NCBI GenBank assembly: GCA_964387845.1
Contig: CAYLXA010000001.1
Span: 224,001 to 288,000, forward strand
Reading direction: 5' to 3'
Origin: an uncultured bacterium
GTDB taxonomy: Bacteria; Omnitrophota; Omnitrophia; Omnitrophales; Abzuiibacteriaceae
DNA: 64,000 nt
Position numbers and translations under genes: made by a program. The stretch's first letter is position 1, and each line of letters begins with the position of its first letter. Below are positions 5,521 through 53,560 of the stretch, in pieces. The notes beneath the pieces are model-generated. The model saw only the letters and a program-made list of their open reading frames with translations. It had not been told where the DNA came from and ran no database searches.

Positions 5521-5565
5521 TGGTAGCGGGGGCCGGATTTGAACCGACGACCTTCAGGTTATGAG
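5521..5565 (-). repeat. Displaced 3' half of tRNA-Met, including an encoded CCA. This is the attR-side direct repeat of the island.
   Basis: The 42-nt stretch 5524..5565 is identical to 53424..53465, the 3' half of the intact tRNA-Met. It is preceded on the minus strand by CCA and sits next to the integrase. Confidence 0.8.
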
Positions 5566-5647: not shown

Positions 5648-6877
5648 CTAGTTCTTACAATTGTTTCTTATTTGTGCTGGTTTTGTTAGCACCATGTTAG
5701 CACGGCTTCCAAAAACTTCTTCATCCAATCTCTTCCCTACACCTTCATAAACAACCGGTAGCAAGTGTCCATATCGGTCAAGTGTTGTCTGAATAGAAGC
5801 ATGCCCTAATTGCGACTGAATAAGCTTAATATTTTCCCCCTGTGAAATCAAGAGGGTCGTGTAAGTATGTCTAAGGTCGTGAAACCGCACCCTTCTTAAT
5901 CCAGCCTTTTTGAGAGCACTAGAAAAATCCCGTTTCACCAAATTATCGGGATCCAGCGGATCGCCGTTTACATTGCAAAATATCAGATCGTGAAGTTTGG
6001 GAGGGAACAACTCACGGTATAAATTCAGTCCTTTCTCTAGAACTTTCGACATAACGATTGTTCTTATAGACCTTCTTGATTTTGGTGTAATAAATTTCCA
6101 ACGGTTACAATTCGTTTCTTTAATTTCGCGCCAACAGCGCCAATATAAACTCCTTCTCACGAAAATTATCTTCCGATTCCAGTCGATGTCTTTCCACTGG
6201 AGACCAAGCAACTCCCCTCTTCTCATCCCCGTCAGCACAGCTGTTAAAATGATGGTTCTTAGAGGTTCATCAGAGTTCTTTAAGAGAAGTCTGATATCTT
6301 GCGGTGTAAGAAAATCCATTTCTCTTTGCTCTTCTCGAATTCTGTCAATATCTGCCGCTGGATTTTCAAAGATATATTTCCATTTTCGAGCATGATTAAA
6401 CATGGTTTTTAAAAGGGACAGGTGGTGATTTACCGTCTTGGCGCTTCTTTTATCGTTTAACTCTGAAATGAATTTCTGAATATCATGCGGACGGATACCT
6501 AAAATAGCTCGGTCTCCCAACGCCGGAACAATGGTTGAATTAATCATTGACTCATAATTTCGGAATGTTGAGTCTTTAATAGAAACTCGAGCATAACTGT
6601 CTAGCCATTTCTTTGAAAATTCGGAAAACAAAATCTTGGGTGGCGCAAAGAAAGTTCCTTTATTAACGGATGAGAGTATTTCACTCAGCCTAGCCTCTGC
6701 GTCCTTTTTCTTCGGGCCAATGCGTTCCCACTTTTGCAAACGGCCTGACCTGAATATGATATAGTAGGCTGCTGATTGATGGCTGCATTTGCCGACACCG
6801 TCAGTCGCGTTTTTCCTGCATTTTCCACACCGCCATACGATACTACCTCTTGCCATGACTGCCTCCAGGATTAGCAA
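5648..6877 (-). CDS. int: Tyrosine-type site-specific integrase
   Basis: The C-terminal catalytic region HDLRHTYTTLLISQGENIKLIQSQLGHASIQTTLDRYGHL carries the R..H..R..Y motif. The gene is adjacent to the att repeat. The last ~10 codons read through a TGTTAGCAC repeat. Confidence 0.9.
   Translation of the reverse strand: MLILEAVMARGSIVWRCGKCRKNATDGVGKCSHQSAAYYIIFRSGRLQKWERIGPKKKDAEARLSEILSSVNKGTFFAPPKILFSEFSKKWLDSYARVSIKDSTFRNYESMINSTIVPALGDRAILGIRPHDIQKFISELNDKRSAKTVNHHLSLLKTMFNHARKWKYIFENPAADIDRIREEQREMDFLTPQDIRLLLKNSDEPLRTIILTAVLTGMRRGELLGLQWKDIDWNRKIIFVRRSLYWRCWREIKETNCNRWKFITPKSRRSIRTIVMSKVLEKGLNLYRELFPPKLHDLIFCNVNGDPLDPDNLVKRDFSSALKKAGLRRVRFHDLRHTYTTLLISQGENIKLIQSQLGHASIQTTLDRYGHLLPVVYEGVGKRLDEEVFGSRANMVLTKPAQIRNNCKN
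5685..5706. promoter_or_regulatory. Direct repeat TGTTAGCAC-N4-TGTTAGCAC. The same motif recurs at the other island end, so this is a candidate arm-type integrase-binding site.
   Basis: tgttagcaccatgttagcacgg here; tgttagcaccgtgttagcacgg at 53332..53353. Both lie just inside the att repeats. Confidence 0.4.
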
Positions 6878-6907: not shown

Positions 6908-7117
6908 TCAACGCTTTCTTACAGGACGGCCGGCTTTTCTCCGTGTTTGAAGGTAATATCTGATGGAAGGCTCTTCTATAAGCCAGATTTTCGCGGTGTT
7001 CGTTATTTGCGCTTCCCTGCCCCTGATTAATCGCTTTCGAAGTAGGCGACGCAGATAACCCGGTGTCAATTTGTACTTCTTTGATGCTTCGAGTGTCGTT
7101 AGCATGACGTTTGCCAA
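6908..7117 (-). CDS. Small basic helix-turn-helix protein of the excisionase/AlpA type
   Basis: 69 aa. A YLRRLLRKRLI..G HTH sits next to the integrase. The C-terminus is basic. Confidence 0.45.
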   Translation of the reverse strand: MANVMLTTLEASKKYKLTPGYLRRLLRKRLIRGREAQITNTAKIWLIEEPSIRYYLQTRRKAGRPVRKR

Positions 7118-7131
7118 AAGAAATATTTGCC

Positions 7132-7329
7132 TTATGATACATTATTTCTGCTCGTTTGGAAGAACCTTATTACCTCATCCTGATTGAAGCGAACGTACTT
7201 TCCCATCTTGATATGCGGAATTGCCTTTTGGCCCAAGCGTGTACGCTGATAAATCCACGTTTTAGGAACTCGCAATACTTTTGAAAGTTCACTAACTGTG
7301 ACCAAATTCTCAGACTGATTTCGTATCAT
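7132..7329 (-). CDS. Excisionase-family DNA-binding protein (HTH_17/AlpA-like). This is the probable recombination directionality factor.
   Basis: LVTVSELSKVLRVPKTWIYQRTRLGQKAIPHIKMGKYVRFNQDEV matches the Xis/AlpA pattern. Confidence 0.6.
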   Translation of the reverse strand: MIRNQSENLVTVSELSKVLRVPKTWIYQRTRLGQKAIPHIKMGKYVRFNQDEVIRFFQTSRNNVS

Positions 7330-19412: not shown

Positions 19413-19462
19413 CTCATAGATGTTGTGCAAAAACGGGCATTTCGTAACAAGAAATTTAAAAT
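19413..19462 (-). promoter_or_regulatory. Conserved ~50-bp promoter/operator element, copy 1 (upstream of the trb operon)
   Basis: ctcatagatgttgtgcaaaaacGGGcatttcgtaacaagaaatttaaaat is about 88% identical to 26639..26688. The second copy is upstream of the traG/relaxase operon. Confidence 0.55.
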
Positions 19463-19468
19463 CCCATC

Positions 19469-21362: not shown

Positions 21363-21410
21363 GGTAAGTCTCCTTAGGTTTAATTGGGATTGAACTACTG
21401 AAGTGATAAA

Positions 21411-26549: not shown

Positions 26550-26638
26550 TGTGGAACTCCTTATGTGGAAGCTTTATCGCTTCAAGTCTTTCATCCAAGT
26601 TTATGCTTGGCGGTTTCTGTTTATTTTTCGAAATGTTC

Positions 26639-26688
26639 TCTCATAGATGTTGTGCAAAAACAGCCATTTCGTAACAAGCAAATTCAAT
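26639..26688 (-). promoter_or_regulatory. Conserved ~50-bp promoter/operator element, copy 2 (upstream of the 26549 traG/relaxase operon)
   Basis: ctcatagatgttgtgcaaaaacAGCcatttcgtaacaagcaaattcaatt; see 19413..19462. Confidence 0.55.
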
Positions 26689-26766
26689 TAACAGATGGAA
26701 AATATTTTTTTATGTCTATTAATGAACTCAATTCATTCAACTCACCACTTCCTCACGAGCACCTGT

Positions 26767-27004: not shown

Positions 27005-30000
27005 TTATATAGTAGCCTCTGCGTCTTGGGTAAGCTCTTGTTTCATTTGTTCATCGCCGTAATTTCCAACATCTAAATAAAATTGATGCGCAGGGTGTTC
27101 TACACTAAAAAGCTTTGCGGTTTCCTTACCGCGAGTTGCTAGATTTTGGCTCTTTGCTGAGACTTCTCCAAATGACCTTGATGATCCCCCGCTAATTGCT
27201 ATTCCAAATAGATTGGATTTTACACGTTTAAGGCATTCAGCAGATTTATTTGAAGCCAATAGAATCAACTCTCCAACAAAAGCGTGCTCGTTAAATATAA
27301 AATTATCCTCCGCGTCTCTGACTAAAAGAGATATGCCCACAAGTTTATTTACAGTAGGATTTTTAAACCACTCTTTTAATATAGCTAAAGATTTAGCCGA
27401 ATACCCATCTGAAACTGCCCGAAAAAGCTTTTCAAGCCAAAAACGATCCGCTGTTTTTGCTAAAGACAGATTTCGAACTACTCTTACGTGCTTCTCATAT
27501 CCCATCATCGTGGAAATACCTTTATAAGCAGTGTCAAATCCTAAATACGGAAGGGGCGTATAATTTTCTCTTCTTGTAAGTTTTTTGACGGGCTTAGTTG
27601 ATTGACTATATAAATAGCGTGCAACTAAAAACTCAACGGCTGCCTGCGGATATTTTCTACAAACAAAAGAAAGGAATTCCTCAACATGGAAATCCTGCCG
27701 TTCAAAGATGTTAAATTTAACCAATTTGCTTAATAAGGATTTTAATTCGGTTTCATTCAGCTTAGAAAATGGAATGCCATAGTTCTCATTATAAATTTCA
27801 AAAAATTGGTCGAGCACTATTCCTCTTTCTTTCAAATCAATGCCCACAGCAAGTTTCTTAGCAGCTTCCGCATCAACCTGCCCTAGTTTTTGAAGTGCCT
27901 GAAGCGCCGTGCCAAAAATATTGTCGTTGCTATGTTTGAGTAAATACCCTACATTCTGGATATCCTCTTTAAAGGGTTTTTCTAAAAGGCCGCCCCAAGC
28001 GTAGGCATGAGCAATGTTGTGGTAGACGATTTGCCTTTTTGTTTTTAGTCCTTGTTTAATTAACGCCCTACTGATTTCTCGATAACTTTCCAATCCATTC
28101 AAGGGCCATAAAATTGATGAGCAAAATTTTTCCACTTCACCATTCTTTCTAGCGAGGCAAAGCTTAAATAATTTTACGGCGAAATCGGGATTGAGTTTTG
28201 TAATTTGAGAAAGAAGGTAATTGGGGTTAGCTGATCTTTTGTAGTGATTTAAATCGCGTAATCTTTTTTCTAAAACCATTAACAACTGACGAGGATTCTT
28301 AGCCTGTTTCAATAAGATTTCAGCTACCCCGCTCACCTCTTTTGCCGTTATTTCAGTTTGTTTACTAAAATCATGCTTTTTATTAACAAATTCTTCGAAA
28401 TCGTGAGCTATCGCACGGACAAGACGATATTCGAAATTCTCCGGTATAAGCTCATAAATACTTTTGATTTTTTTCTTTAATTCGTCGTGCCTTCCAAACA
28501 AACTAAACCAACGAAGTTGCGATCTTACGGCAAGTCGGAAACAGGACGACTTAATGATCTTTAATTTTCTTTTAACCAATTCGAGAATTGATAACTGTTC
28601 TGGCAAATAAACATCTTGCTCTGACTTTCCAGCGCGACGACCGTATAGTCCATGAGAATAGCTCAATGCTTTTAAGAGAGTATAAAGAGCTTCCATTAAC
28701 ATCTTTGGCGGGGCATCCGGTTGGATGAAGGAGCCAAGTAATTCTATAGTGCTATTACGCAAGTTTTTCACGGCTTCGTAATTTAAAGGCAAAGACCTGA
28801 AGGACATGCTTCCTTCATCGTACGAAGACTCTTCAATCTCTTTCGCGAGGAATTCTTCCAAAATATTCAAAGGTGTATAACGGTAAATAAAGTTATTTTT
28901 CTTGGCCACGGTTTCTTTAAGGAAGGCAAAAACTTTCTTATTGTAAACAAGGGGCTTTCCGACTTGATATTCAGCCAACTCTTTTAAGATTCTAACGGAA
29001 TGCTGCGGATGAGGATTTAATTCTCTTTCGTCAGTTTTTGCAATTTCCCAGAGAATTTTACAGGCAGGAGTGACATATTCTAAATTAAAGGCTATCTTTT
29101 TTAATATAGATGGAATTTTTTCCAATACATGACGATGCTTCCAGAAATCTCCATATAATTGCTTCTTAGGATTAGGGCGTGCGGGCGCTTTAATGGCGTG
29201 GTTTACTAGCTCTAATGCTTTATCAGGTTGATAATACGCCGACTCTTCGATTTCTTCCAAGATTTTAGTTCGCTCATAATGATCAGCTTTTCTAAAATCT
29301 TCGTGGATTTTTTTCCAAACGGAACTTAAAAGATCTACATTCAAGGCATTTTTTCTTGCTCGCCACTCTACTTCAGAAATATTTTTAAGAATGTTTTTTG
29401 CTAGAGTTGATTTAAATTTCTCATACACATGATCAGCAAATTTAGTGCTTGAGCCATCTTTGGCAATACAGGCTGAGTGAAGAATATGATCACTCAATAA
29501 ATCAGGAGCAAGCCTTGCCAACGCTCCGCGTCTTATCAAAACCCCTTTTTCTTCCATCGCATCAAATGCTTTGACAATATCAAAAACAGGACACGCAAGA
29601 AGTTCGGACAATTGTTTCCGTAACTCCTCGTTATTCAATCTCACTGGGGCAAGCACAGAAAGATATTGAAGAAGCTTATCTGCTAATCCCGGATTGGAGT
29701 AATTTTCTCCTTTAAGTTCATCTATAAATTTATCTAAAACGGTTCTTTGAAATTCATCGCTTTTGCTTATTTTGTATGGATGCAGCTTTTTATCGCGAAT
29801 TAATTTGCTGGCAATTACCGCTGCCAGGGGGCAGTCTCTGGTCATAGCCACGATATATTTAATCAGGCCAGAATCATGTCCGACAATGCTTTCAACGATT
29901 TCTTCTAAATCAACCTTTTTCAAATCACTTAACTCCGGAGGCCGTTCGATTTCGTTTAACAAAAGATTTGTATGCGCCAATACACTATCGACAAATTCTT

Positions 30001-30919
30001 TTCCGCGAGGGCGAATAGACAAAATGATTTTGATTTCGTCTTTCCGTGGAGAGTTGAAAATTGATAAAAGGTTGGGAAGACTCGTATATCTATGAGCATC
30101 ATCAATAACCAAAATGCTGCGGCCAGCCGGAAGAAGAGAAATTGTTTCAGTAGTTAGAACAAAGTTTTCACGAACAAATAAGACCCTAGCCCACTCACTC
30201 ACACCCACTTCTTGTTTTTTAGAAAATTCTAATAATAATTTACTTTTACCAATGCCGCCTCTTCCCGTAAGAACGATTACCTTCTTATCCGAGTTTGCAA
30301 AAGCTTCTAGACTAGACAATTCTGAGCTACGACCGACAAGATTAATCTCATGAGAAAATAAAACATCGCGCCGTAAGAGCGTACGAAAAAAATCTTGATA
30401 CGAAACAAGCGGCCCCTTTTTTCTATCTTCAAACTCCTTATAGGCGCTTATTGCGTTTAAAAATTCCTCACGAAGCTGATCAGACTCTGAAAATCTCTTA
30501 AATGTTCGCTCTTGTGCAACCTTATCAAAAAAAGCTTGGTGTTTCTTTTTTACTTCCAGGTCTTCGTCTTTAGGCTGCCATTCTTTTCCATTCGGAGTTT
30601 TTAAAAAAACAAAAACTTTTAAGCCTAAGCGGGTAGCTCGCTCATATTCTATTTGAGTATAAGAAATGCCAGCTTTGGGATTTACGGTTCCATACAGAGG
30701 CCCGATTAACAAGACAACGCAATCAGATCCCTCTAGATGCCGAAGACACGTTTCTTCAGGCGTATCAGGACTTGAAGGAAACCATTCCATTGCAGAAAAT
30801 TCTGTACCTTGTGCCGGAGTTAAACCTAAGAGGTTATTCCGTTCATCATTTAGACCAGCTTGTGGTGAACTTAAGAAGATTTTGAACTTTTTGAGGTCAG
30901 CCATTGAAAACTCTTCCAA
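27005..30919 (-). CDS. STAND-class P-loop NTPase. It has a DUF4062-like N-terminal domain and a ~900-aa C-terminal helical-repeat region, an architecture like the Avs/bNACHT antiphage sensors.
   Basis: N-terminal KIFLSSPQAGLNDERNNL matches the DUF4062-type start. Walker A is VLTGRGGIGKSKLL and Walker B is ILVIDDAH. The C-terminal ~900 aa have long alpha-helical repeats. The protein is 1304 aa. Confidence 0.6.
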   Translation of the reverse strand: MEEFSMADLKKFKIFLSSPQAGLNDERNNLLGLTPAQGTEFSAMEWFPSSPDTPEETCLRHLEGSDCVVLLIGPLYGTVNPKAGISYTQIEYERATRLGLKVFVFLKTPNGKEWQPKDEDLEVKKKHQAFFDKVAQERTFKRFSESDQLREEFLNAISAYKEFEDRKKGPLVSYQDFFRTLLRRDVLFSHEINLVGRSSELSSLEAFANSDKKVIVLTGRGGIGKSKLLLEFSKKQEVGVSEWARVLFVRENFVLTTETISLLPAGRSILVIDDAHRYTSLPNLLSIFNSPRKDEIKIILSIRPRGKEFVDSVLAHTNLLLNEIERPPELSDLKKVDLEEIVESIVGHDSGLIKYIVAMTRDCPLAAVIASKLIRDKKLHPYKISKSDEFQRTVLDKFIDELKGENYSNPGLADKLLQYLSVLAPVRLNNEELRKQLSELLACPVFDIVKAFDAMEEKGVLIRRGALARLAPDLLSDHILHSACIAKDGSSTKFADHVYEKFKSTLAKNILKNISEVEWRARKNALNVDLLSSVWKKIHEDFRKADHYERTKILEEIEESAYYQPDKALELVNHAIKAPARPNPKKQLYGDFWKHRHVLEKIPSILKKIAFNLEYVTPACKILWEIAKTDERELNPHPQHSVRILKELAEYQVGKPLVYNKKVFAFLKETVAKKNNFIYRYTPLNILEEFLAKEIEESSYDEGSMSFRSLPLNYEAVKNLRNSTIELLGSFIQPDAPPKMLMEALYTLLKALSYSHGLYGRRAGKSEQDVYLPEQLSILELVKRKLKIIKSSCFRLAVRSQLRWFSLFGRHDELKKKIKSIYELIPENFEYRLVRAIAHDFEEFVNKKHDFSKQTEITAKEVSGVAEILLKQAKNPRQLLMVLEKRLRDLNHYKRSANPNYLLSQITKLNPDFAVKLFKLCLARKNGEVEKFCSSILWPLNGLESYREISRALIKQGLKTKRQIVYHNIAHAYAWGGLLEKPFKEDIQNVGYLLKHSNDNIFGTALQALQKLGQVDAEAAKKLAVGIDLKERGIVLDQFFEIYNENYGIPFSKLNETELKSLLSKLVKFNIFERQDFHVEEFLSFVCRKYPQAAVEFLVARYLYSQSTKPVKKLTRRENYTPLPYLGFDTAYKGISTMMGYEKHVRVVRNLSLAKTADRFWLEKLFRAVSDGYSAKSLAILKEWFKNPTVNKLVGISLLVRDAEDNFIFNEHAFVGELILLASNKSAECLKRVKSNLFGIAISGGSSRSFGEVSAKSQNLATRGKETAKLFSVEHPAHQFYLDVGNYGDEQMKQELTQDAEATI

Positions 30920-31071: not shown

Positions 31072-31428
31072 TCACGCTGAGGAATTATCAAGTGAAATCG
31101 ATAAGAGCCAATGGCCATTGTGCTGATTTTTGATTTTTTTAAGATTTTCATACCGTTTAAACAAATCATCCGGCAAACGTTCAAGGGCGTTTTCGATATG
31201 CTTATTGACAGTCTTTGGCTTAATTTTCATGGCTTGAGCGATTTCCTTCCGCTTCATGAAAAGCGAGAGAATAAAAGACGCCTTCTGGCTTGCCGTCAGC
31301 GAACGGAATAAGACCGGAGAACGGGGATTAATCTTTTCAGAGAACACGCGAGAGTTTGATTGGTCTCGCTCCTGCTCTCTGACAAGTTGTTCTAATTCCG
31401 GTGAAAACTTTTTAAATTGTTTTGGCAT
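31072..31428 (-). CDS. Small sigma-70 region-4-type HTH regulator
   Basis: LTASQKASFILSLFMKRKEIAQAMKIKPKTVNKHIENALERL is an ECF sigma r4-like HTH. Confidence 0.5.
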   Translation of the reverse strand: MPKQFKKFSPELEQLVREQERDQSNSRVFSEKINPRSPVLFRSLTASQKASFILSLFMKRKEIAQAMKIKPKTVNKHIENALERLPDDLFKRYENLKKIKNQHNGHWLLSISLDNSSA

Positions 31429-33979: not shown

Positions 33980-36900
33980 CTAGTAATTATTTGTCGGATC
34001 GTGGTCAATATAATCTCTCGAAAATTCGCTGCCTTGATTTACTAACTTTGCAATGCCTTCTAGAAATCGGCCTATCTTAGTTTTGAATTGCTCCATCCTA
34101 ATTTGACGAGTAGGCTCGTTTGCTGGCCTTGGCCTAAATCTATCCATAGATTTTATGGCTTTTTGTTTAACTTTTTGATTTGCCCCTGGTTTTTCCCGCG
34201 AACTACGTTTTTGAAATTGTTTTTTAGGACTTGATCGACTTGTTTTTGCTTCTCTAAGCAAAATATCGGGAGCGGAAGCTACCTTTGCCGCAGAAATGGT
34301 TAGCGCGATCATGCCATCTGTTACGACGGGATAGTTACCCGCCGTCGGCGGCCCTCCGGGTAGCCCGGATCCCTCTCCTGGCAACTTAATGTTATCTACA
34401 AGCTTATCTGCTATCGCTTGTTTGTCAATGAATCGATCAATTGACTCTGAAAAATGTATTTCATTAGTCAAGCTTGCGCTTGTCATAGTTGCAGCGCTTA
34501 TTTGCGTAGCTGCGAGTGCCGCAGATGCAGATGCAATGCCGACAGCTTCTGAAATAGTAAAGGCGGAGCCTGATGCGGTGGTTAAAAGTGCGCTGCTTGC
34601 TTCTACATATACGTCGCCGCCTGCTAGCACAGCTTCACTGATAGTTATGTTGCCTGCGCCCGTACTCAACGCACCAGCTGCCGCTTGTAACGTTTGTAAA
34701 ATAACTGTGCCTGCCATTTGTATAATGGTAATAGCGGTTGTAGCTATAGTAATGGCTAACTTTACGACTGCGGCAATAATTGCAACTATAATCCACCAAA
34801 AATTACCGCTAGGATCGACAAATCTTATCGGATTATTCCTTGCGTAAGCATAACGATTGAAACTTTGCGGATCCTCGGGGCTTTGAATGAATGAATCGGG
34901 AGTAATAAAGCGACCTATTTGAGGATCGTAGTACCGGGCGCCAGCATAAATGAGATCAGACTCAAGATCTTCTTCATGGCCAGTATAAGTTCTATTAACA
35001 ATATCCGTTCCTTCCCGACGTTTTACTTCGCCATACGGTAAATACTCCATCAAAAGCGTTTGCATACCAGCTTCATTAGAAACAACATTGGTCGAACTTA
35101 AATGATCTTGATGGTAGAATCTTAAGTGCGGGATGCCTTGACTGGAAATTTCTAGATCGCTCACTCGTACTTCGCCCAGATAAAATCCCTTACGAGTCAA
35201 CAAATTATTAGGCCCATATTGAACTTCATAGTCCTTTCCTAAATAATAAGTGATTTGATTGTCGGCACTTTTCTTAACTCTTTGGCCCGTAGTATCGTAA
35301 ACATAAGAACCAATAAGTATAGGTTGATTGTCAGCAGGATTGCTTTGTATCGTGGCACTGATACTCTGAGAATTTGTAACATAAATCTTGTATGTTTTGC
35401 CAGTTTCCAATGTTGTGATGTCTGTAAATTCAGGGTCAATCACGAAGTGATCCCATGCTTGTGCGGTTGAATCCCAATACGAAATCTGGTCATAATCCGG
35501 ACCGATATTTAATCCAGAAAATATTTCCTGAATATCACTCATATATTGGCCGGACGTTGTGTTAAAAGGCTGGAAAGGGAGTGTGAAGGTATTCCATCCT
35601 GGATTAAATTGAAATGTATGATCTTGAGGTTCGCTAGATGCCCCCCTTGTCAGTTGCACAAGCTGGTTCTCAAAATCATACGTCAACAATTCATTATTCC
35701 GCTGGATCATATTGCCATTGGCATCATAGGAAAACGTGATTGTTTCCGATGAGTCTACGTATTGCGTAACTGCTTGGGGATGCAACGGGTCATTGTATTG
35801 AAGAGTGGCATTATTTTTTTGAGTCATGTTTCCAATTGCGTTGTATTGGAAATCATGAATTCCGTAACCTTGCGGATTAGAGGCTTGGATTAATCGATCA
35901 AGGTCGTCATATTGGAAGCTCTGTGAATTGGTGTTGATCGAATCCTGAATGGAAAGCACATTACCTTCGTTATCAAAGGAATATCCAAAATCCTGTAGTA
36001 ATTGATTTTGACCGCCTCGGGTTAATAGATGCGTTAATCGAAGTGATTGCGGATTATAGGTGTAATCTGTTGTGACACCATTCCCATATTGAATCTTTAT
36101 GACCTGCCCGGAGGGGTTATAGTCGACATTCGAAATGATTGACATTTGAGTTTGATCGGTGCGTATAAGCGCCATTATTTCCGTCTCGCCCATGCCGTTA
36201 TAAGTTATATTGAGAACATCGCCATCTGGATATTCAAGGGATGAGACTCTGTCTAGCGCATCATAAACTCGTGTAAAGACGTAATCATTTCCGTCATCAA
36301 GGGATTTTTTATCCTGAATGACACGACCTAGTGGGTCATAACGGAAAACCTGAATGCCGGAGTTGTCAGCAACTTTGACCAATTTTCCGATGGAATAATT
36401 AGTGCCAGGCAATCCGCCGCACGTATCAGATGGACATGAATCATACACGTAATCAACGTGGTTTCCGTCAGGGAATGTTTTCTTTGTGATCCGATTCAAC
36501 GGATCATATGTAAATTCTATTCGCGATCCACGCGCATCAATCTGAGCTGTTAAGTTATCGTTCGAGTCATACTCATATTGCCAGAATCCAGTATTAGGAT
36601 CATTGACGCTCCTTTTACGGCCTAATGTATCGTAAATGATGATCGTTTCATGTCCATAATGGTCGATAGTTTTCGTCAAACGACTTTGCGCATCGTATTC
36701 ATACTGCGTTGTATATATTTCTGCGCCATTAAACTCCTGCACTTCAACAATATTGCCAAACGCATCCTGCGAGATTCTTTTTTGATGATTATTTCGATCG
36801 ATTTCGGTCCTCACAAAGTCATCATAAATTATTCTGGAAAATGTTAAATCTGGATAGGTGGTTTTGATGATGCGACCCATCGGGTCGTAATCGTACGTGA

Positions 36901-45663: not shown

Positions 45664-46155
45664 TCACGCCTTATTTGATGAATCTTCTCTTTGTGGCCCC
45701 AAAATCTTCTTCAAAGCTGTAATCAAATTCAAATGAAAGGACTCATTTTTTGGAATAACAGCATGAAATAAAACTCCTTCTAACTGATAGTACCATTCCA
45801 TCCGTGGAAATTCATCTGTCGTGAGGCAAAGCATTGGGAGTTTTATGCCAGCATTTTTTATTCTGCGCGCAAGCTGAATTCCCCAATTAAAATCGATCTT
45901 GGTATCTTTCAATTTTAACAAATGTTTGGCGAGCGGTAGATTTGATTGCGTTCTCATGGACAAAGCAAGAGATTCTCCCCCAATTCGCATTTCTTTGGAA
46001 ATCACAATTGCATCGACTTCATGCCTCCTAATGGCTTCTTCAATAAAGTTTTCACTAGATATTCCTATAACCTCATAGGCAAAGGATTCAAGAATTGGCC
46101 GCAAATCAGCTACCAGATAATCTTCCTCTATGAAGAGAAGTCTTTTCATAAACAT
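45664..46155 (-). CDS. Degenerate receiver-like (pseudo-receiver) protein
   Basis: REC-like alternation of strands and helices, but the acidic pocket reads EED and the phospho-site position is Ser (IVISKEM). Confidence 0.4.
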   Translation of the reverse strand: MFMKRLLFIEEDYLVADLRPILESFAYEVIGISSENFIEEAIRRHEVDAIVISKEMRIGGESLALSMRTQSNLPLAKHLLKLKDTKIDFNWGIQLARRIKNAGIKLPMLCLTTDEFPRMEWYYQLEGVLFHAVIPKNESFHLNLITALKKILGPQREDSSNKA

Positions 46156-48434
46156 TACGATTCTGATTCTCGGTTCTCATTTACGGCATTTTCGGTGGGA
46201 AGCCAAAACACAAACTTTGATCCGCCTTCAAGTCGCTTCTCAAGCCAAATTTTTCCACCATGAAACTCTTCTATAATTTTCCGGCAAACATATAAACCCT
46301 GTCCATGCCCCGCATCCATTGAGATAACTGATTGTGGTTTGGGTTTCGTAGAAAACCCTTGTGAGAAAACCTTATCAAAGAGTGATTCAGGAACTCCAGG
46401 GCCCTCATCCCAATATTCAAACCATGTTACCGGTTTTTCGTTATTGTCACGTTCTGAACCAGTAAGATAAATTAAATCGTTCGGTTGTCCCGCTAAAGCA
46501 TCAATCGAATTCTTAAATAAATTCTCAAATACCTGCTCCATCATGTACACATTCCCGAATAATTTAAATCCTTCGGAGAGCGTGACTTTAAATTTTGGCG
46601 TGTCATCAATGTTCAAATTGCGCTTTGCTGTTTCCCACGGTACCCTAAAATCCATGACTTGCTTCATGTTCTTATCTCCCGCAAGAGCGCCAACAACTGA
46701 ATCCACAACTAACTTGACTCGATCTGCCATGCCTTCAATATCACGCGAATACTTAACGATCGATGCATCAATCTCTTCAAGCTGTCTAGCTTCAATATTG
46801 GTTAGTTTATCTTTAAGTTTATTTTTTAAGCGATTCACGCGGTCTGGCAAATGAAGGCGCATGTTAATGGCAGCACTTCCAACTCCCACTAACTTATTAC
46901 CAGCTTCGTGCTTTAAGCTCCTGGTGAAATTAACTTGTTCGGCAATCTTTTGCGCTTTGACTTTTTCTTCACGCTCAATAACAATATCATTTACGAGTCT
47001 TGTATTTTCTGTGGCAATGGCTGAATCCTGGGCAATTGTAAAAAAAACATCCAAATCCTCGCTTGTGTATGGCTCGTCAGATTTCTTACCGCCAAGAACT
47101 AGCACATTGGAGATTTTCTGATTAAATCCATTGCTTTCAATATCAGGCTGACCAATAAAACTAGGAATTAATGCTTCCGCTTTCAATGCATTGAAAATGT
47201 TGAGAATGTCAGACTGAGATTGAGAATCGAGTCTTTCATCTTTCATATTTTTTTCAATGGAATATGCTGTGATTGGACCATTCTGCGATGTTAATAATCT
47301 GATTACCGGGTGGTTTTCGGAAATTGTTAGCCGCGGACGATTACTTCTACCACCGTATCCTAATGGATACCTCAGATCATATTCATTATTATTGGTTCGC
47401 ATTAAGATTCCCGCATTTCTAATCCTCCCCTGTTTAACCAAATATGCGGAAACTTGTTTAGCTAATTCGTCCAAACTGTGGATGAATGCGATTTGCTTTG
47501 CATTCTCTTTGAGAAGTTTGTGGTAGTCGTATTTTTTTTGGAATAAAAATTTATCAGTAATATTGGTTAAAATTTTTTCCACGGGTCTATAAATAAAAAC
47601 AGATGCTGCAATTCCACATATCATGAGAAAAAAAGGTGATATGCCCACCGTTCTTCCAATAATCATCTGAGTCAACCCTATGGGAATAGAAATCGTCAGA
47701 ACAGATATCGTTACAACTCCAGCAAATACTAGAGTTCGCTTAATAATAAGTTTTATATCCAACAACTGATATTTAACAATTGAAAATGCCACGGTAGCAA
47801 CGTAAACCGCTACCAAAATATTTCCGACAGGTGGAATTTTTATGTTATACCACAAGAAATGATTTGTCATTCCGCCCAAGAAACCTATGAGCGTACCTAA
47901 AAGAACACTAAAATTTCTCTTCCAGACAATTGAATGCTTCTCCTTGATCAGCCAAACAATCATTAAATAATGCGAAACAGTAACATTTAAGGCAAACCAC
48001 AAATGAAATGCATAGAAAAGCGGTCCAGGAACAGGCCAATAGGCAAATGTTAAGCGTTGTTCGACAGTTTGGATGAAATAAGCATTGAATGAGAAAAATA
48101 TTATGACAACACCAAAAATCAAATTCATTAAACGAATAATTCTGTGCTCAGATTCCTTTCCCAGCAGATGGATTATAAACTCGGTAAAAGAAGGCGGTAT
48201 CAAGGTTGAGCCTACCATTGCTAAGCGTATCCAAAATAGCGCTACATCCGCACTAGCAGACGTCATTGTCCATACCCAGACAGCATAACACGCAGCCCAA
48301 AATCCAACGCTAATAGCGAATATTACAAATATAAGATTCAATCGTTTTGTGGGGTTTTTGTGAAGGACAAGAAAACTTACGGAAAAACTTGTAAGAGCGT
48401 TAATAATCGCGGACCAAAAATAATAACCTGTCAT
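46155..48434 (-). CDS. Membrane sensor histidine kinase (7TMR-DISM-type N-terminus, C-terminal HATPase)
   Basis: ~8 N-terminal TM helices. H-box-like SLKHEAGNKL. N/G1/G2 boxes ...NLFKNSIDA..., YWDEGPGVPE, GHGQGLYVCRKII. Confidence 0.7.
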   Translation of the reverse strand: MTGYYFWSAIINALTSFSVSFLVLHKNPTKRLNLIFVIFAISVGFWAACYAVWVWTMTSASADVALFWIRLAMVGSTLIPPSFTEFIIHLLGKESEHRIIRLMNLIFGVVIIFFSFNAYFIQTVEQRLTFAYWPVPGPLFYAFHLWFALNVTVSHYLMIVWLIKEKHSIVWKRNFSVLLGTLIGFLGGMTNHFLWYNIKIPPVGNILVAVYVATVAFSIVKYQLLDIKLIIKRTLVFAGVVTISVLTISIPIGLTQMIIGRTVGISPFFLMICGIAASVFIYRPVEKILTNITDKFLFQKKYDYHKLLKENAKQIAFIHSLDELAKQVSAYLVKQGRIRNAGILMRTNNNEYDLRYPLGYGGRSNRPRLTISENHPVIRLLTSQNGPITAYSIEKNMKDERLDSQSQSDILNIFNALKAEALIPSFIGQPDIESNGFNQKISNVLVLGGKKSDEPYTSEDLDVFFTIAQDSAIATENTRLVNDIVIEREEKVKAQKIAEQVNFTRSLKHEAGNKLVGVGSAAINMRLHLPDRVNRLKNKLKDKLTNIEARQLEEIDASIVKYSRDIEGMADRVKLVVDSVVGALAGDKNMKQVMDFRVPWETAKRNLNIDDTPKFKVTLSEGFKLFGNVYMMEQVFENLFKNSIDALAGQPNDLIYLTGSERDNNEKPVTWFEYWDEGPGVPESLFDKVFSQGFSTKPKPQSVISMDAGHGQGLYVCRKIIEEFHGGKIWLEKRLEGGSKFVFWLPTENAVNENRESES

Positions 48435-49450
48435 GTGCCATTCTTCGCAAAACAGTATTGAATAACACCTTGCTGCTCATATTCTATGCTTAAATCAGCA
48501 AGTTTAAATCCAGAATCAAGAAATATCTTCTTAAATTCATCTTCCGTTCGATAAACAAGATTCCACTCGCCGACCCATTCCATAAAGTGTATGGCCGGAT
48601 TGCTATATTTATCAAAATAATTCGCGATTACCAATACACCATTCGGGCGCAATAATTTCTTCAGATTTGAAACAAGGCGCACGGAAATCTTCTCATCCAA
48701 ATAATCAAATAATCCCGTTGAGAAAATCAAGTCATATGGTTTTGGAAACTCATGCACTATATCTTTTTTTAAAGCCATACGAACAACATTCTGCTTTACA
48801 AATGAAATGTTTGATAAATCACCTAAAAGCTTCTTTGCGTATGCAATTGCGTTTTCGTCATTGTCTAAACAATCAATATGAATATTTTCTTTGCTGAATT
48901 GAACTTGATCAATAAGTTCCTTAATATCGCGACACGGTCCCGAAGCCAGGTCCATGATATTTATTTTCTCACCATTAACTTTTCGCTCATTAATAAATTT
49001 ACTGATGATCCTTTTGAAATCGTCTTTTCTGTTCCTTGTTGCAACGGAAGCAGCGGATATTTGAAAATAATTATCAAACAATCTATCAAAACCAACGGAT
49101 GTGGGATTGTTCAAATATATATCATCGATGATTTGGAAATCGCCCGCATAACCGAAAGGTTTGTCCACACTCCATTTTATATATTGACCATAAACAAAAT
49201 CTTTCCTCAATTTTGATACAAAAAAGCGTTTCAACTTATACAGCTTTTCTTCATTGCCCCTTGCAATATTTTCCTTTTCAAATAGCATAATGTCGCGAAA
49301 AATGCCGTTTATTTCTTGATTAAATTCACTTTGAAATTTTCCCCATTTATTAGGATCAGCATACAATAATGCCTTAAGTTCCACCGCACGTTTTTTGTAT
49401 CGCTTGATTTTGCTAAGTAAAACTAAGTTTGGCTCGCCAATAGAAAACAT
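48431..49450 (-). CDS. Class-I SAM-dependent methyltransferase
   Basis: Motif I IMDLASGPCRDI, acidic motif II, and a Rossmann-fold pattern. It is not CheR-like. Confidence 0.6.
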   Translation of the reverse strand: MFSIGEPNLVLLSKIKRYKKRAVELKALLYADPNKWGKFQSEFNQEINGIFRDIMLFEKENIARGNEEKLYKLKRFFVSKLRKDFVYGQYIKWSVDKPFGYAGDFQIIDDIYLNNPTSVGFDRLFDNYFQISAASVATRNRKDDFKRIISKFINERKVNGEKINIMDLASGPCRDIKELIDQVQFSKENIHIDCLDNDENAIAYAKKLLGDLSNISFVKQNVVRMALKKDIVHEFPKPYDLIFSTGLFDYLDEKISVRLVSNLKKLLRPNGVLVIANYFDKYSNPAIHFMEWVGEWNLVYRTEDEFKKIFLDSGFKLADLSIEYEQQGVIQYCFAKNGT

Positions 49451-49453
49451 TGC

Positions 49454-49831
49454 TTACACTCCCAAACAATCCATAACTGTTTTCAATAGCTCCCTTATAT
49501 CAAAGGGCTTCATTATATAAGCAATCGGATTCAGCTTTCTCGCCTCACGCTCTATATTATCATCTGCAAATCCAGTAACAAAAATAGTGGGAATTTTCTT
49601 TTGCTTTTTACTCATGTTTTCTTGAATTTGACGCACGGTTTCAACGCCGCTCAGCCCTGGCATGCGTATATCCGAAATAACAAGATCAAAGTCATCTTCG
49701 TCCATTATAGCCACCGCGTCAGACCCATTGCGCACGGTATAAACTTCGTATCCCTGCTTTTCAAGAAGCCGACTCAGAGACTTAATGAGCAATTCCTCAT
49801 CATCAATTACCAAAATTTTCTTTGCTGACAT
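49454..49831 (-). CDS. Single-domain response regulator (CheY-like)
   Basis: KILVIDDEELLIKSL...LVISDIRMPGLSG...KP. Confidence 0.75.
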   Translation of the reverse strand: MSAKKILVIDDEELLIKSLSRLLEKQGYEVYTVRNGSDAVAIMDEDDFDLVISDIRMPGLSGVETVRQIQENMSKKQKKIPTIFVTGFADDNIEREARKLNPIAYIMKPFDIRELLKTVMDCLGV

Positions 49832-49848: not shown

Positions 49849-50088
49849 TTATTTGTTGTCTAGTTTCTCAATAACGTATTGAATGATATCTTGTACTTTG
49901 TTCATTTTTGCAGCATCTTCATCGGAAATCTCAATGTTAAACTCCTCTTCAATTGCCATAATGAGTTCGACCGAATCCAAGGAATCTAATTCGAGATCCT
50001 TAATCAGTTCAGAGTCAGGCGAAACTTCTTCAGGTTTGACTCCCAACTGATCACAAATGACTTCCCTGACTCGAGCTTCAATATTCAT
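49849..50088 (-). CDS. Acyl carrier protein-like
   Basis: ELDSLDSVELIMAIEEEF carries the DSL phosphopantetheine-attachment serine motif in a 79-aa acidic four-helix protein. Confidence 0.7.
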   Translation of the reverse strand: MNIEARVREVICDQLGVKPEEVSPDSELIKDLELDSLDSVELIMAIEEEFNIEISDEDAAKMNKVQDIIQYVIEKLDNK

Positions 50089-50093
50089 AACAA

Positions 50094-50435
50094 CTATTTG
50101 GCGTTGAAACCATGAGTCATTACTTTCATGCGCTGAATAAGCTTCTCGATGATTTTCATACCTCTTTGCCTACTTTCACGGGACTGCCGTTCTTTTGAAT
50201 GTAGGATCTGGATAAGTTCGCGACAAAGGTCCTTGTCTTTATCCGTAAATGCCGTTGTCACTAGTATTTCATTAATTCTATTAATGAAATCCGGAATTCT
50301 TTCTTCAAGCATTCTTTCACAATCATTAGATGAAAATGCTATGTAAATTGGGTAAAGCTTATTTCTTTGATATGCCAGCAGTCTCTTGATGGCTTCCTTT
50401 TGTACTTTTGACCGTTCAAATGTCAATTTTTTCAT
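50094..50435 (-). CDS. Hypothetical protein (113 aa), first gene of the island's two-component operon
   Basis: Position only; there is no motif. Confidence 0.3.
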   Translation of the reverse strand: MKKLTFERSKVQKEAIKRLLAYQRNKLYPIYIAFSSNDCERMLEERIPDFINRINEILVTTAFTDKDKDLCRELIQILHSKERQSRESRQRGMKIIEKLIQRMKVMTHGFNAK

Positions 50436-50624
50436 CAGATTGGTGGCAAAATTCTATCACATTTCTCTATGCAAACTGATGTGAAATAATCAGTTCGCAG
50501 GATTGGCTTAACAGTATAAATACGGCACTTTTAAGCCGTTTTTTGACTTATGATGGAATTTGAAAACAGGAGAGTTTAGCTGAATAACATTGCTGATTGT
50601 GAAATGGGTGCTATAATAAAAACG

Positions 50625-50685
50625 TGGCTAGAGAGCGCTCGACCCGGCACGGAAGAACCTCTCAGGGCATTAAGCCTTTTCGCCA
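50625..50685. repeat. ~60-bp repeat R, copy 2
   Basis: See 41952..42013. Confidence 0.55.
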
Positions 50686-50759
50686 CGCTTGACTAATGTT
50701 AACTCTCCTTATAACCGCTACCTACAACGCGTTTAGGCAAATCCATTGTTCGCAATGAT

Positions 50760-52502
50760 TCAGGTAATTGAACCTGAAATGGCCTCTACAAGCCTTCTTC
50801 TAAAGTAAGCCGTCACAGATTTCTCGGAATTCATTTGGAGAAAGGCTGGGTTGACATTGCCTGTGAGGTCTCCGCGCCACCCACGAAAGATCCAACCTTC
50901 GGCAGTATTTGGAATAGCGTGCAATTGAACTTTAAATCCTTCCTGATATCGCCCGAAAGCATCAGGTAAAGGCAATTGGTTCACTATGCCGTCACCTACT
51001 ATGCCGATCTTGATTCCATGTTTCGGGAATAAGCCAGAATGTTTGCTATCTCGATGAAGTGCAGGCCATGGTAGAAAATTTGAATGAGCCTGCTGAGTGT
51101 CAAATGAAAAAAATCCAACTTCAAATGGATAACCTAGATTTTTCATGGACATCACTACATCGGTGTCTCCGTCCGTCCTTAAATCAGTGATCATTGCCGT
51201 GCCGGTCGACCCGATTTCTCCACCCGGGGGAACAGGAACTTGCGCTGGAAAGCCTGGCAGCATGTTACCCTCTTTTGACCATGCATATATTTTTCCTGAA
51301 GGAGCAAGAAAAACTAAGTCATATGAAGAGTCACCATTAATATCAGCGATGGTTACATTGCTCTTTGTGATATAGGAGTACTCAGGCATGATGGGCTGAG
51401 GCCATCCGGGAAACGGAGTTCCGTTCGATTTGAGTACGTTCACATAACCGTCCGAAAGGAATGCAATTTCAAGCGTTTGATCACCATCGAGGTCGGCCAA
51501 ACTAGGGCTCCCGAGTGAAAAGCCCCATCCCGATACAGTCCGCGGCCATCCGGTTAACTGCGTGCCATTTGCATTAAGAACATTGATGCGTGCGGTAGCC
51601 GTTGTGGAATCCTCCAAAACAACAACATTCAAATTTCCGTCATTATCAACATCGCCTACGGACAAGCTGGATATCTTTCCACCGACAGTGACCGGCCACC
51701 CAGGCAAGTCGCTTCCATCTTTACAGCGAATGGCATACACCTTGTTTTGGCCTCGGATGAGAATGTCTTCGATCCCGTCGTTGTCGAGATCGCCAACTGC
51801 CAAAGAGGACCCGGCGAAATTAGAGATGATTTTTGGGTAGGTATTATTGAATAAGGTTCCGTCATTCTTGAACAGGTAAAGCATTGCGGTAGGCGGCGTT
51901 CCAGGTGTTGTAATATATTGTGCGCTTAAAATTGCAATTTCGCTCTCACCATCGTGATCAAAATCCCAAACTAAAGGAGTGCTTACGACGCGACCGTTTT
52001 GAGTAGGACCAGAAATCGACACTCCTGCTACCGGCCAATTGGGGAAAACATTGCCATCAGGTCTAAGCACGAGCAATTTACTATCATGTATATTACCGGG
52101 TCGATTAATTCCCACGCTAGCTATAATTTCTTGAACACCGTCGCCGTCAAGGTCAGCTATGGCAGGCATCGTTTCTACAACATCATCCACACTACTAAAA
52201 GCGGGTGGATTTGCTAGTGTAAAAAGATTAACGGGAAATCCTGGCAGGTCGTTACCAAAGGAATCCACACCGTACAAGAACCCATTATTCGCCCCCGCCA
52301 GTATTTCCATTTGACCATCAGGTTTTAAATCACTGACTACAACGGGACCCAGATAATGAAACGCGGACGCGGAAATCCAGCGAATAAATGTTTCGTCGTC
52401 AGCGCGAGCTTCCTTCACACCCAAGTTTAACGTCAACAAAAAAAGACAAATGAGCAGTCTAATTAAGAATCTTCTTACGACGAATACAATTTCGTTTAAC
52501 AT
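50760..52502 (-). CDS. Secreted FG-GAP/VCBS beta-propeller protein with a C-terminal InlB-B-repeat-like domain
   Basis: Signal peptide. Seven D-x-D/N-x-D-G calcium-loop repeats: DLDGDGVQE, DFDHDGESE, DLDNDGIED, DVDNDGNLN, DLDGDQTLE, DINGDSSYD and DLRTDGDTD. C-terminal GWIFRGWRGDL. Confidence 0.55.
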   Translation of the reverse strand: MLNEIVFVVRRFLIRLLICLFLLTLNLGVKEARADDETFIRWISASAFHYLGPVVVSDLKPDGQMEILAGANNGFLYGVDSFGNDLPGFPVNLFTLANPPAFSSVDDVVETMPAIADLDGDGVQEIIASVGINRPGNIHDSKLLVLRPDGNVFPNWPVAGVSISGPTQNGRVVSTPLVWDFDHDGESEIAILSAQYITTPGTPPTAMLYLFKNDGTLFNNTYPKIISNFAGSSLAVGDLDNDGIEDILIRGQNKVYAIRCKDGSDLPGWPVTVGGKISSLSVGDVDNDGNLNVVVLEDSTTATARINVLNANGTQLTGWPRTVSGWGFSLGSPSLADLDGDQTLEIAFLSDGYVNVLKSNGTPFPGWPQPIMPEYSYITKSNVTIADINGDSSYDLVFLAPSGKIYAWSKEGNMLPGFPAQVPVPPGGEIGSTGTAMITDLRTDGDTDVVMSMKNLGYPFEVGFFSFDTQQAHSNFLPWPALHRDSKHSGLFPKHGIKIGIVGDGIVNQLPLPDAFGRYQEGFKVQLHAIPNTAEGWIFRGWRGDLTGNVNPAFLQMNSEKSVTAYFRRRLVEAISGSIT

Positions 52503-52528
52503 AGGGGTCTCCTTTCCACAATTAATGA

Positions 52529-53152
52529 CTATTTTTCAATGGCTTCTCTTTTTCGAATATTTTCACGGACTACGCGCAAGAAATCATCCACGGAGAAAGG
52601 TTTAAAAAGACAATCATCAACTCCAAGTTCTATTGCCTGTGTCTGTGGGTCGCCTTCATGAAAACCAGTGATCAACATTTCTCCTGCGCGAGGCCTACCT
52701 AGACTCTTTTGCGCCTTCCGAATTGCTCGAATGGTATCAAGTCCATTCATTTTCGGCATGCGAATATCGGAGATGATTAGATCGAAAAACGTTTCTTTAA
52801 TTTTCTCAATTGCGGATTCTCCGTTCTCTGCTGTTGTGACGCCATAATTCGCTTGTTTAAGCACTTTCGACAGTGAATTGCGAATAAGCTGGTCATCATC
52901 AATCAAGAGAATTTGTCTTATTTTGCCTCTGCTCTGCCGCAATTTACCCTGGCCAATAATACGAGTTACATCATTTGCATCAAAACGCAAAACACCGCCG
53001 ATCCGAATGGGAACTAACAAGCCTTTCTTTATCCAAACAAATATGGTGGAGCGATTCACTGAAAGGATCTCGGCCACTTCTTCCACACGGAGAAATTTTT
53101 GTTCCGACGCAGTATCACTTTTCAATTTCTTCTCTTTTGCCATTGTGAGCAA
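52529..53152 (-). CDS. Excisionase-family HTH (HTH_17) fused to a receiver domain, next to attL
   Basis: N-terminal LRVEEVAEILSVNRSTIFVWIKKGLLVPIRIGGVLRFDANDV is a Xis/AlpA-type HTH. C-terminal ILLIDDDQLIRNSL...LIISDIRMPKMNGLD...KP is a canonical REC domain. Confidence 0.65.
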   Translation of the reverse strand: MLTMAKEKKLKSDTASEQKFLRVEEVAEILSVNRSTIFVWIKKGLLVPIRIGGVLRFDANDVTRIIGQGKLRQSRGKIRQILLIDDDQLIRNSLSKVLKQANYGVTTAENGESAIEKIKETFFDLIISDIRMPKMNGLDTIRAIRKAQKSLGRPRAGEMLITGFHEGDPQTQAIELGVDDCLFKPFSVDDFLRVVRENIRKREAIEK

Positions 53153-53168
53153 TTCCTCAATAGTTAAA

Positions 53169-53220
53169 AGTCTAATTTAGTCTTAATTAGTCTTAATTAG
53201 TCGCTAATATAACTAATATC
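53169..53220. repeat. Tandem degenerate 10-mers (TCTTAATTAG x ~4) immediately upstream of the HTH-REC gene
   Basis: tctaatttag tcttaattag tcttaattag tcgctaatat, read directly from the sequence. Confidence 0.5.
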
Positions 53221-53331
53221 TCGGACAAGTCAACAAAAACTTTAAAAAAATTTTCATCGATCTGTCAAGTCTGACATAGACCACGTCTTTGATGATAAGC
53301 GAGAAGCATGTGTGGTGAGTTTTTCAAGGTT

Positions 53332-53353
53332 TGTTAGCACCGTGTTAGCACGG
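53332..53353. promoter_or_regulatory. TGTTAGCAC direct repeat, the attL-side copy of the candidate arm-type site
   Basis: tgttagcaccgtgttagcacgg; compare 5685..5706. Confidence 0.4.
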
Positions 53354-53371: not shown

Positions 53372-53416
53372 ACAAAAAAATAGCCATCGATGTAACTATC
53401 GATGGCTATTTTATTT
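53372..53416 (-). terminator. Terminator hairpin downstream of tRNA-Met
   Basis: 13-bp perfect inverted repeat AATAGCCATCGAT/ATCGATGGCTATT flanked by A- and T-runs. Confidence 0.55.
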
Positions 53417-53423
53417 ACGAAAC

Positions 53424-53497
<74 letters not shown>

Positions 53498-53560
53498 ATA
53501 AAAGATAAAAACGAAGATGTATTATATAAAGCGAATGACAGATTTGCAAGCGCGGCTAAT

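Follow-up and report, generated by a model that had tools for sequence, protein, structure and literature searches.

An excisionase-type winged helix fused to a receiver domain at the tRNA end of an Omnitrophota integrative conjugative element: a probable autoregulated response regulator of a cargo operon

What does an excisionase-like DNA-binding domain do when it is joined to a receiver domain and placed beside an attachment site? The question is raised by a gene in a 64,000-nt stretch of DNA (the window; contig CAYLXA010000001.1, positions 224,001 to 288,000 of the forward strand) from an uncultured bacterium of the Omnitrophota, family Abzuiibacteriaceae. This gene occupies the tRNA end of a mobile island, and a sequence-only reading of the locus had suggested that excision or transfer is gated through its phosphorylation-controlled, Xis-like product. 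We favour a different answer and consider it probable: the protein is an autoregulated, BldC-like response regulator that works through direct repeats and governs a cargo operon of two genes, not excision of the island. The gene and its parts are the following.

52529..53143, minus strand: response-regulator gene, 204 aa, with an N-terminal HTH_17 winged helix and a C-terminal receiver (open reading frame list, Pfam, AlphaFold2 model)
53154..53158, minus strand: ribosome-binding site GAGGA, 10 nt 5' of the ATG (read from the sequence)
52955..53095, minus strand: HTH_17 / BldC-Xis-type winged-helix domain, aa 17–63 (Pfam, profile against PDB, model topology)
52568..52912, minus strand: receiver (REC) domain, aa 78–192, with D82, D83, D126, T159 and K181 (Pfam, alignments, Foldseek)

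The start codon is the ATG at 53143, preceded by GAGGA 10 nt upstream; the ORF finder lists a TTG at 53152, which is less plausible as the initiation codon. Pfam assigns residues 17–63 to HTH_17 (E = 2.9e-9), with weaker matches to MerR_1, MerR and AlpA, and residues 78–192 to Response_reg (E = 6.8e-26). The catalytic set of the receiver is complete (D82, D83, D84, D126, T159 and K181-P182), and these residues are invariant or nearly so across the family in alignments of 9 and 44 relatives. An AlphaFold2 model built from 44 sequences (mean pLDDT 89.9) has a β-α-α-β-β-α winged helix (residues 17–65), a flexible linker (66–76) and a standard receiver (77–203); a coiled coil is absent from it. 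Foldseek aligned solved receiver chains to the model with target-normalized TM-scores of 0.85–0.92. A search of the PDB with the full model returned receiver-domain matches only, and no solved structure covers both domains. The gene is real and its product is, by domain architecture and intact receiver residues, a response regulator; the sequence-only reading had been right to describe an HTH_17 domain joined to a canonical receiver.

The case for autoregulation comes from the DNA immediately upstream of the gene.

53206..53233, minus strand: sigma-70-like promoter TTGACT-16-TATATT of the regulator operon (read from the sequence)
53169..53202, minus strand: tandem direct 10-mers GACTAATTAA / GACTAATTAA / GACTAAATTA (+GAC), putative operator (TRF)

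On the gene strand the order is TTGACT, 16 nt, TATATT, AGC, GACTAATTAA GACTAATTAA GACTAAATTA GAC, ribosome-binding site and ATG. Counted from the promoter of the regulator itself, the repeats thereby extend from about +1 to +33, between the -10 element and the ribosome-binding site. The program TRF detects 3.4 copies of a 10-nt unit at 53169–53202 (score 54), and the autocorrelation of the operator is 22/24 at shift 10 (p < 0.003). Four tandem repeats had been claimed for this promoter: the repeats are there, the number is not, the array consisting of three good copies and one degenerate one. Allowing up to three mismatches, the 20-mer GACTAATTAAGACTAATTAA has two overlapping matches in the 64-kb window, both at the operator (0.01 expected), and a pair scan of the window with a position weight matrix gave matches solely at the operator (0.17 expected). 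By these two scans there is no second tandem operator in the window, whether in the att arms, the xis/int region or the promoters of the type IV secretion system (T4SS).

The arrangement is conserved. Promoters stand at the matching position in two close relatives (TTGACA-17-TATAAT in L001 and TTGACA-17-TAGAAT in L002), the promoter–repeat layout being common to the 73% and 57% identical relatives. The tandem repeats themselves are kept in L001 and L095–97 and, in diverged form, in L002. More distant loci have 10-nt tandem direct repeats of other sequence after the -10 element, namely ATTGCACTTT ATTGCACTAT TTGACACTCA in L091 (p 0.003) and a further set in L092 (p 0.013). Because these two loci are chromosomal and have their tandems at the equivalent position, we take the repeats to belong with the protein and not with the attachment site. 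A distant subfamily (L084, L086, L088, L089 and L090) has TTGCGCAA / TGCAC motifs in place of 10-nt tandems directly after the -10 element, among them the palindrome TTTGCACAAAATTTTGTGCAAA in L090. The pattern suggests that both the sequence and the geometry of the operator change along with the protein clade.

Taken singly, the 10-mers are about as frequent in this AT-rich window as chance predicts, as they should be if the array had arisen by chance from AT-rich DNA and the protein were an inconsequential regulator, orphaned or in decay. We give such an interpretation almost no credence. The tandem is unique against an expectation of 0.01, and its position is conserved in relatives at 95%, 73% and 57% identity. 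The reading frame is intact and retains all receiver residues; both domains are present in 44 of 44 sampled family members, with a mean column identity of 44%.

The regulator probably shares its transcript with the next gene, behind which lies a structured element.

50760..52502, minus strand: secreted FG-GAP / Flg_new_2 protein, 580 aa, with a signal peptide (probable co-transcribed target)
50625..50680, minus strand: structured terminator-like repeat element 3' of the FG-GAP gene (repeat search, fold)

The FG-GAP gene starts 26 nt past the regulator stop codon with its own AGGAG, and FG-GAP homologues follow the regulator in all close relatives (L001, L002 and L095–97). The short gap and the terminator-like element behind the FG-GAP gene together suggest a bicistronic unit. 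A second copy of the 56-nt element (89% identity) lies at 41952–42007, in the intergenic space between a 182-aa gene (42351–42899) and the gene at 40194–41705. On the minus strand both copies fold into closed multi-stem structures (z -2.7 and -2.3) followed by a U-run, and the closing stem shows compensatory changes. No Rfam family matches the element, which may be a complex terminator or an element of the 3' untranslated region.

A source for the signal can be proposed from within the island.

46155..48434, minus strand: HisKA_7TM histidine kinase, candidate cognate kinase (Pfam)
49454..49831, minus strand: stand-alone receiver, closest paralogue of the regulator's receiver domain, 35% identity (comparison)

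The HisKA_7TM kinase is located 4.1 kb downstream of the regulator on the same strand. Besides the regulator the island carries this histidine kinase and four other receiver-domain proteins, so the earlier suggestion that it has two-component signalling of its own is borne out. At the chromosomal locus L090, a homologous HisKA_7TM kinase and methyltransferase, together with a receiver, adjoin the regulator homologue P0113 in an arrangement homologous to the island module.

We propose that phosphorylation of D126 would switch head-to-tail multimerization of the winged helices on the three 10-bp direct repeats, with the island's HisKA_7TM kinase module (46155–49450) as the likely phosphodonor. 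Occupancy of the repeats would then set transcription of the regulator and of the secreted FG-GAP protein, in an operon that would end at the structured terminator-like element. Repression would be the simplest effect, because the repeats lie between the -10 element and the ribosome-binding site. In this model the module would be accessory cargo of the element, and the part of directionality factor would fall to the small Xis proteins beside the integrase. From these arrangements we infer repeat binding, its dependence on phosphorylation, the direction of the regulatory effect and the partner kinase.

The closest precedent for the predicted binding mode is BldC. When the N-terminal family profile was compared with the PDB, BldC of Streptomyces came first (6AMK/6AMA, E = 1.7e-7) and Xis of mycobacteriophage Pukovnik second (4J2N, E = 1.8e-4), followed by weak matches to GlnR and RacA. 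BldC, the best solved-structure match of the regulator's helix-turn-helix (HTH) domain, is a MerR/Xis-like winged helix. It binds AT-rich direct repeats head-to-tail, with about one protomer per DNA turn and a per-protomer consensus of AATTxxxx(C) (PMC5859096). The regulator's repeats have a corresponding 10-bp period, and two of the three read AATTAAGAC, which fits this consensus; head-to-tail binding by the regulator is predicted from this likeness. The two proteins differ in architecture and host. BldC is a stand-alone protein of 68 residues that has no signal-receiving domain and comes from Actinobacteria, whereas the winged helix of the Omnitrophota protein is fused to a C-terminal receiver.

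Like OmpR/PhoB and NarL/FixJ proteins, the regulator has a canonical receiver with an acidic pocket, a threonine and a lysine, and its likely autoregulation via direct repeats is reminiscent of PhoB boxes in the OmpR/PhoB family. The domain order is nevertheless inverted relative to both families, with the DNA-binding domain at the N-terminus and the receiver at the C-terminus, and the output is an HTH_17 winged helix instead of an OmpR or GerE domain. The HTH domain scores with the MerR_1 and MerR models, but the coiled-coil dimerization helix and effector domain of MerR proteins are missing. The promoter spacer is 16–17 bp (16 in the window, 17 in L001 and L002), compared with 19–20 bp for MerR, and the sites are direct repeats downstream of the -10 element where MerR uses a palindrome within the spacer. 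On the grounds of spacer length and repeat geometry we reject a MerR-type mechanism.

How unusual is this architecture? Few close full-length relatives were found among 5.8 billion proteins (P0002 at 73%, P0003 at 57%, and P0318, a variant in the same 90%-identity cluster). Of the best 120 clusters in a profile search, 97 combine HTH_17 and Response_reg in 171–261 aa (most about 180–215) at 30–42% identity to the regulator, and all eight of these 97 that carry an organism name belong to Omnitrophota. Annotation pipelines call the family 'response regulator' or 'excisionase family DNA binding protein'. An exhaustive HMMER search was dominated by multi-receiver proteins; its top 150 matches contained seven single-stretch full-length ones, and it gives no family size. 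A characterization of an HTH_17 or excisionase-type response regulator was not found in the literature. The HTH_17–REC architecture is thus already in the databases but uncharacterized, with an unusual output domain and an inverted domain order. Several candidates from wider scans were discarded. L056 (Paenibacillus), an apparent full-length match from the genome-contig scan, encodes a YesN-type REC-AraC protein; receiver-only peptide patterns in the same scan led to 80 unrelated receiver loci; and L093, the sole match of the metagenome-contig scan with an HTH part, is an unrelated HTH/zinc-ribbon protein beside an integrase. A scan of viral contigs for the regulator found nothing.

Eleven distinct contexts of the family were read, the window included. 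Six of them are chromosomal in the ordinary sense: no tRNA stands immediately upstream, and no integrase was called in the surrounding 8 kb. At L084/85 the homologue lies between an rpsP-trmD-rplS-rnhB-Omp85 block and the gene for a 4193-aa adhesin, a neighbourhood that is identical on at least 18 contigs. At L086/87 it precedes a 1837-aa Laminin_G_3 protein, with a tRNA-Thr/tRNA-Tyr pair about 1.7 kb upstream and two genes in between. L088 places it amid housekeeping genes, L090 beside the kinase, methyltransferase and receiver described above, and at L091 and L092 it stands directly 5' of large PAS histidine kinases. The 57% relative, L002, is on a 7.3-kb contig that contains no tRNA or integrase and precedes a FG-GAP homologue of more than 1421 aa. 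The occurrence of homologues as ordinary chromosomal regulators had been named in the sequence-only reading as an observation that would refute gated excision, and it is largely what we see. With homologues at 33–42% identity commonly chromosomal and no integrase within 8 kb of them, gating of excision by a phosphorylated Xis-like protein is not supported.

The large proteins next to some homologues deserve mention in their own right. The 4193-aa protein (L084/L085, from 9162) carries fn3, cadherin and Big_9 domains, and the 1837-aa Laminin_G_3 protein is encoded at 8605–14118 of L086. Judging by such gene order, regulator homologues may control giant surface genes of Omnitrophota.

A direct role in recombination can be weighed further from the layout of the island itself.

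53423..53498, minus strand: tRNA-Met(CAT), integration target (tRNA call)
53424..53465, no strand: att core copy at the tRNA-proximal junction, 42 nt, identical to 5524–5565 (repeat search)
5524..5565, no strand: att core copy at the integrase-proximal junction (repeat search)
53377..53412, minus strand: hairpin and T-run directly after the tRNA / att core, terminator (read from the sequence)
53330..53353, minus strand: tandem GTGCTAACA x2 at 11-nt spacing, candidate integrase arm-type sites, tRNA end (repeat search)
5682..5705, minus strand: tandem GTGCTAACA x2, candidate arm-type sites, integrase end (repeat search)
5648..6877, minus strand: tyrosine integrase (Pfam Phage_integrase, E = 7.9e-28)
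7132..7329, minus strand: canonical small Xis-type protein, 65 aa (Pfam HTH_17, E = 1.4e-7)
6908..7117, minus strand: second small Xis-like protein, 69 aa (Pfam, weak HTH_17, E = 0.013)

The 3' half of the tRNA-Met gene, 42 nt, is perfectly duplicated as a direct repeat that encloses 47.9 kb. The genes within include TrbI/VirB10, CagX/VirB9, a VirB4-like ATPase, TrbC pilin, a coupling protein (T4CP) and a Replic_Relax relaxase. All the features that define an integrative conjugative element (ICE) are therefore present, namely tRNA direct repeats, tyrosine integrase, relaxase, coupling protein and type IV secretion, and the island is a 47.9-kb ICE. The regulator starts 280 nt inside the tRNA-proximal junction and is the first gene inside the island there, while the two small Xis-like proteins, of 65 and 69 aa, accompany the integrase at the other end; both placements agree with what the sequence-only reading had said. 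Exact copies of the 9-mer GTGCTAACA number four in the window, one tandem pair lying just inside each island end. The pair at the integrase end falls within the 3' end of the int coding sequence, and these candidate arm sites are unrelated to the operator 10-mers.

The protein might be a phosphorylation-gated recombination directionality factor (RDF) that binds next to the att site at the tRNA end and itself promotes or inhibits excision by Int, but we regard this as very improbable. Its HTH domain is homologous to Xis/RDF proteins: the HTH_17 / Xis winged-helix fold is found by Pfam, by the profile match to Pukovnik Xis and by hhalign, which aligns the regulator's HTH family with the island's 65-aa Xis at 94% probability. 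The fold and the Pfam family are likewise common to RdfS, Pukovnik Xis (4J2N) and lambda Xis. Lambda Xis acts on the arm distal to int, which is where the regulator lies. From the coordinates, excision and circularization would put the regulator on the far side of attP, about 400 nt downstream of int. Other elements, too, have it at the tRNA end. At just 20% identity, however, the regulator's HTH is far from the island Xis, for which reason we reject its being a recent duplicate of that protein. RDFs are small, single-domain proteins that are encoded beside the integrase and bind inside the att arm; the regulator has 204 residues with a receiver, lies 46 kb from int, and has its recognizable tandem sites solely in its own promoter and leader, while the places adjoining int are already taken by a canonical Xis of 65 aa and another Xis-like gene. 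The repeats lie 222–255 nt from the att core, past the candidate arm-type sites, and coincide with the gene's promoter and leader. Relatives, as described above, are mostly found in loci that lack an integrase.

Comparison with other tRNA-integrated elements gives a further argument. Four of the eleven contexts have the regulator as the first gene behind a tRNA, a different one in each element: Met in the window, Cys in L095/96 (two samples), Val in L001 and Pro in L089/94. The array of regulator, FG-GAP gene, 113-aa gene and ACP gene in L095, L096 and L097, which come from three other sequencing runs, is 95.5% identical in nucleotide sequence to 49915–53245 of the window, yet it stands behind tRNA-Cys and not tRNA-Met. 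The identity ends at 53245 of the window, 12 nt before the -35 element is reached from upstream, and the alignment with L001 loses similarity at the same position; we conclude that promoter and operator go with the gene as one self-contained module, which has been attached to unrelated att arms. The comparison of L095–97 with the window can be read as evidence of module exchange between int/att systems. L001 and L089 have different tRNAs but carry GAAGTATCCTTTT (+52/+55) and tandem repeats of the AAAGTGGACT type (about +110) equally far from them, and the two seem to share one att arm; the arm of L095 is of a third type and contains ACCGATCAGA twice. The distance from tRNA to operator in the four elements is 221, ~315, ~466 and ~530 nt. 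Such variation does not fit an intasome, in which an architectural factor needs fixed geometry, and the linkage of the module to unrelated arms and tRNAs at variable distance argues against a directionality factor. The arm of L089 has a feature of its own: at 7553–7660 (also in L094) a TTGACA-17-TAGAAT promoter lies between tRNA-Pro and the regulator, with a strong intrinsic terminator about 70 nt on, and the segment may encode a small RNA.

If it does not act on the recombination complex, the regulator could still govern the ICE through promoters, as an element-level transcriptional master that relays the kinase signal indirectly to transfer and excision genes. We judge this unlikely, though less so than direct action at att. 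Four elements with at least three arm types have the regulator as their first gene behind the tRNA, it heads the gene array of the ICE, and nearly all island genes are co-directional with it. RdfS of ICEMlSymR7A, also an HTH_17 protein, binds and represses its own promoter and activates ICE genes (PMC11963761). In CTnDOT, the element-encoded two-component system RteA/RteB controls excision and transfer (PMC3809561), and this cascade is similar in logic to the reading just outlined; RteB, however, is of the NtrC type and acts via RteC and the separate Xis2c, Xis2d and Exc proteins, so that CTnDOT offers no fusion of an Xis-type domain with a receiver. Position provides a parallel to another element as well. 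SetR lies at the int-distal end of SXT, as the regulator does in this ICE. Against a master regulator, the ICE has no second tandem operator by the scans described above, including upstream of xis/int and of the T4SS operons. The backbone operons share a different conserved upstream element, two small regulators of the LuxR type are already present in the backbone, the terminator-like element follows directly after the FG-GAP gene, and many family members occupy non-mobile loci.

The upstream element of the backbone operons is an 80-nt repeat (19404–19483 and 26631–26710, 78% identity) with a near-identical 44-nt core, CTTGTTACGAAATGsCyGTTTTTGCACAACATCTATGAG. Its copies precede the TrbC pilin operon and the gene at 26142–26549. 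The repeat probably serves backbone operons of the ICE as a common promoter or 5' leader and would have a regulator of its own, perhaps the LuxR-type proteins encoded at 19469–19837 and 31072–31428.

Other observations weigh against a pure cargo regulator of the BldC type. First place after the tRNA in four of eleven contexts is more than pure cargo predicts. With ~50 tRNAs in a genome of a few Mb, we put the chance that a gene lies no more than 700 nt downstream of any of them at about 1%, by a rough estimate of our own, and recurrence of this position by chance is unlikely. The identity of the cognate kinase is suggested by co-occurrence, half of the distant relatives have TTGCGCAA/TGCAC motifs and not clean 10-nt tandems, and the residues with which BldC contacts bases are not conserved: Lys26, Arg30 and His46 align with Ser32, Val36 and Val51 (the numbering offset is inferred). 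The fit of the repeats to the BldC consensus may thus be coincidental, and since the contact residues differ we take the binding mode, not the recognition code, as transferable. A broader alternative, in which the regulator is a conserved boundary gene of tRNA-integrating Omnitrophota elements that couples a kinase signal to excision or transfer, either as what would be the first receiver-fused architectural protein of the RDF type or as a master switch, would explain its first place after tRNA-Met, -Cys, -Val and -Pro despite different att arms. It seems to us a doubtful proposition, and we keep an element-level role open because the regulator recurs as the first gene after the tRNA.

Several further features of the ICE were recorded. 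Its cargo comprises a STAND NTPase, an RHS/Tc toxin, the HisKA_7TM kinase with a methyltransferase, and several receivers; an enolase gene lies in the island flank, and its product is 71–77% identical to those of the listed enolases that bear an Omnitrophota name, which places the host in this phylum. The NTPase, a 1304-aa DUF4062 / STAND protein (27005–30919) in the low-GC part of the cargo (GC 0.37–0.39), has no PADLOC match and may be an uncharacterized defence or signalling NTPase; PADLOC returned domain-level matches only. The RHS/Tc-type toxin (33980–40192; SpvB, TcdB_toxin_midN, FG-GAP and RHS domains) is 37% identical over 1730 aa to a toxin at 13891–20607 of L094, behind the tRNA-Pro regulator homologue, and this type of cargo recurs across these elements. 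A gene pair for a class-II glutamine amidotransferase and an Amidoligase_2 protein (20325–22685) is found amid the conjugation genes. L003, a Logan contig from SRR15237813, is identical in sequence, was assembled independently and breaks at position 1 inside the 42-nt att repeat, as duplication of the repeat, or a mixture of integrated and excised forms, would lead one to expect.

The favoured reading, a BldC-like response regulator of a cargo operon, would, if true, define an uncharacterized class of response regulator whose output is a signal-controlled head-to-tail filament of a BldC/Xis-type winged helix, unlike the usual dimerization of OmpR or NarL proteins. Phospho-switching would thereby be linked with cooperative winged-helix multimers on direct repeats. 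If an element-level role were true instead, the locus would be a simple example of environmental gating of ICE mobility. Omnitrophota is an uncultured phylum noted for giant surface proteins, and to our knowledge nothing is known about the regulators of these. The family described here is common in Omnitrophota and often stands directly 5' of giant surface protein genes; its members may be their regulators.

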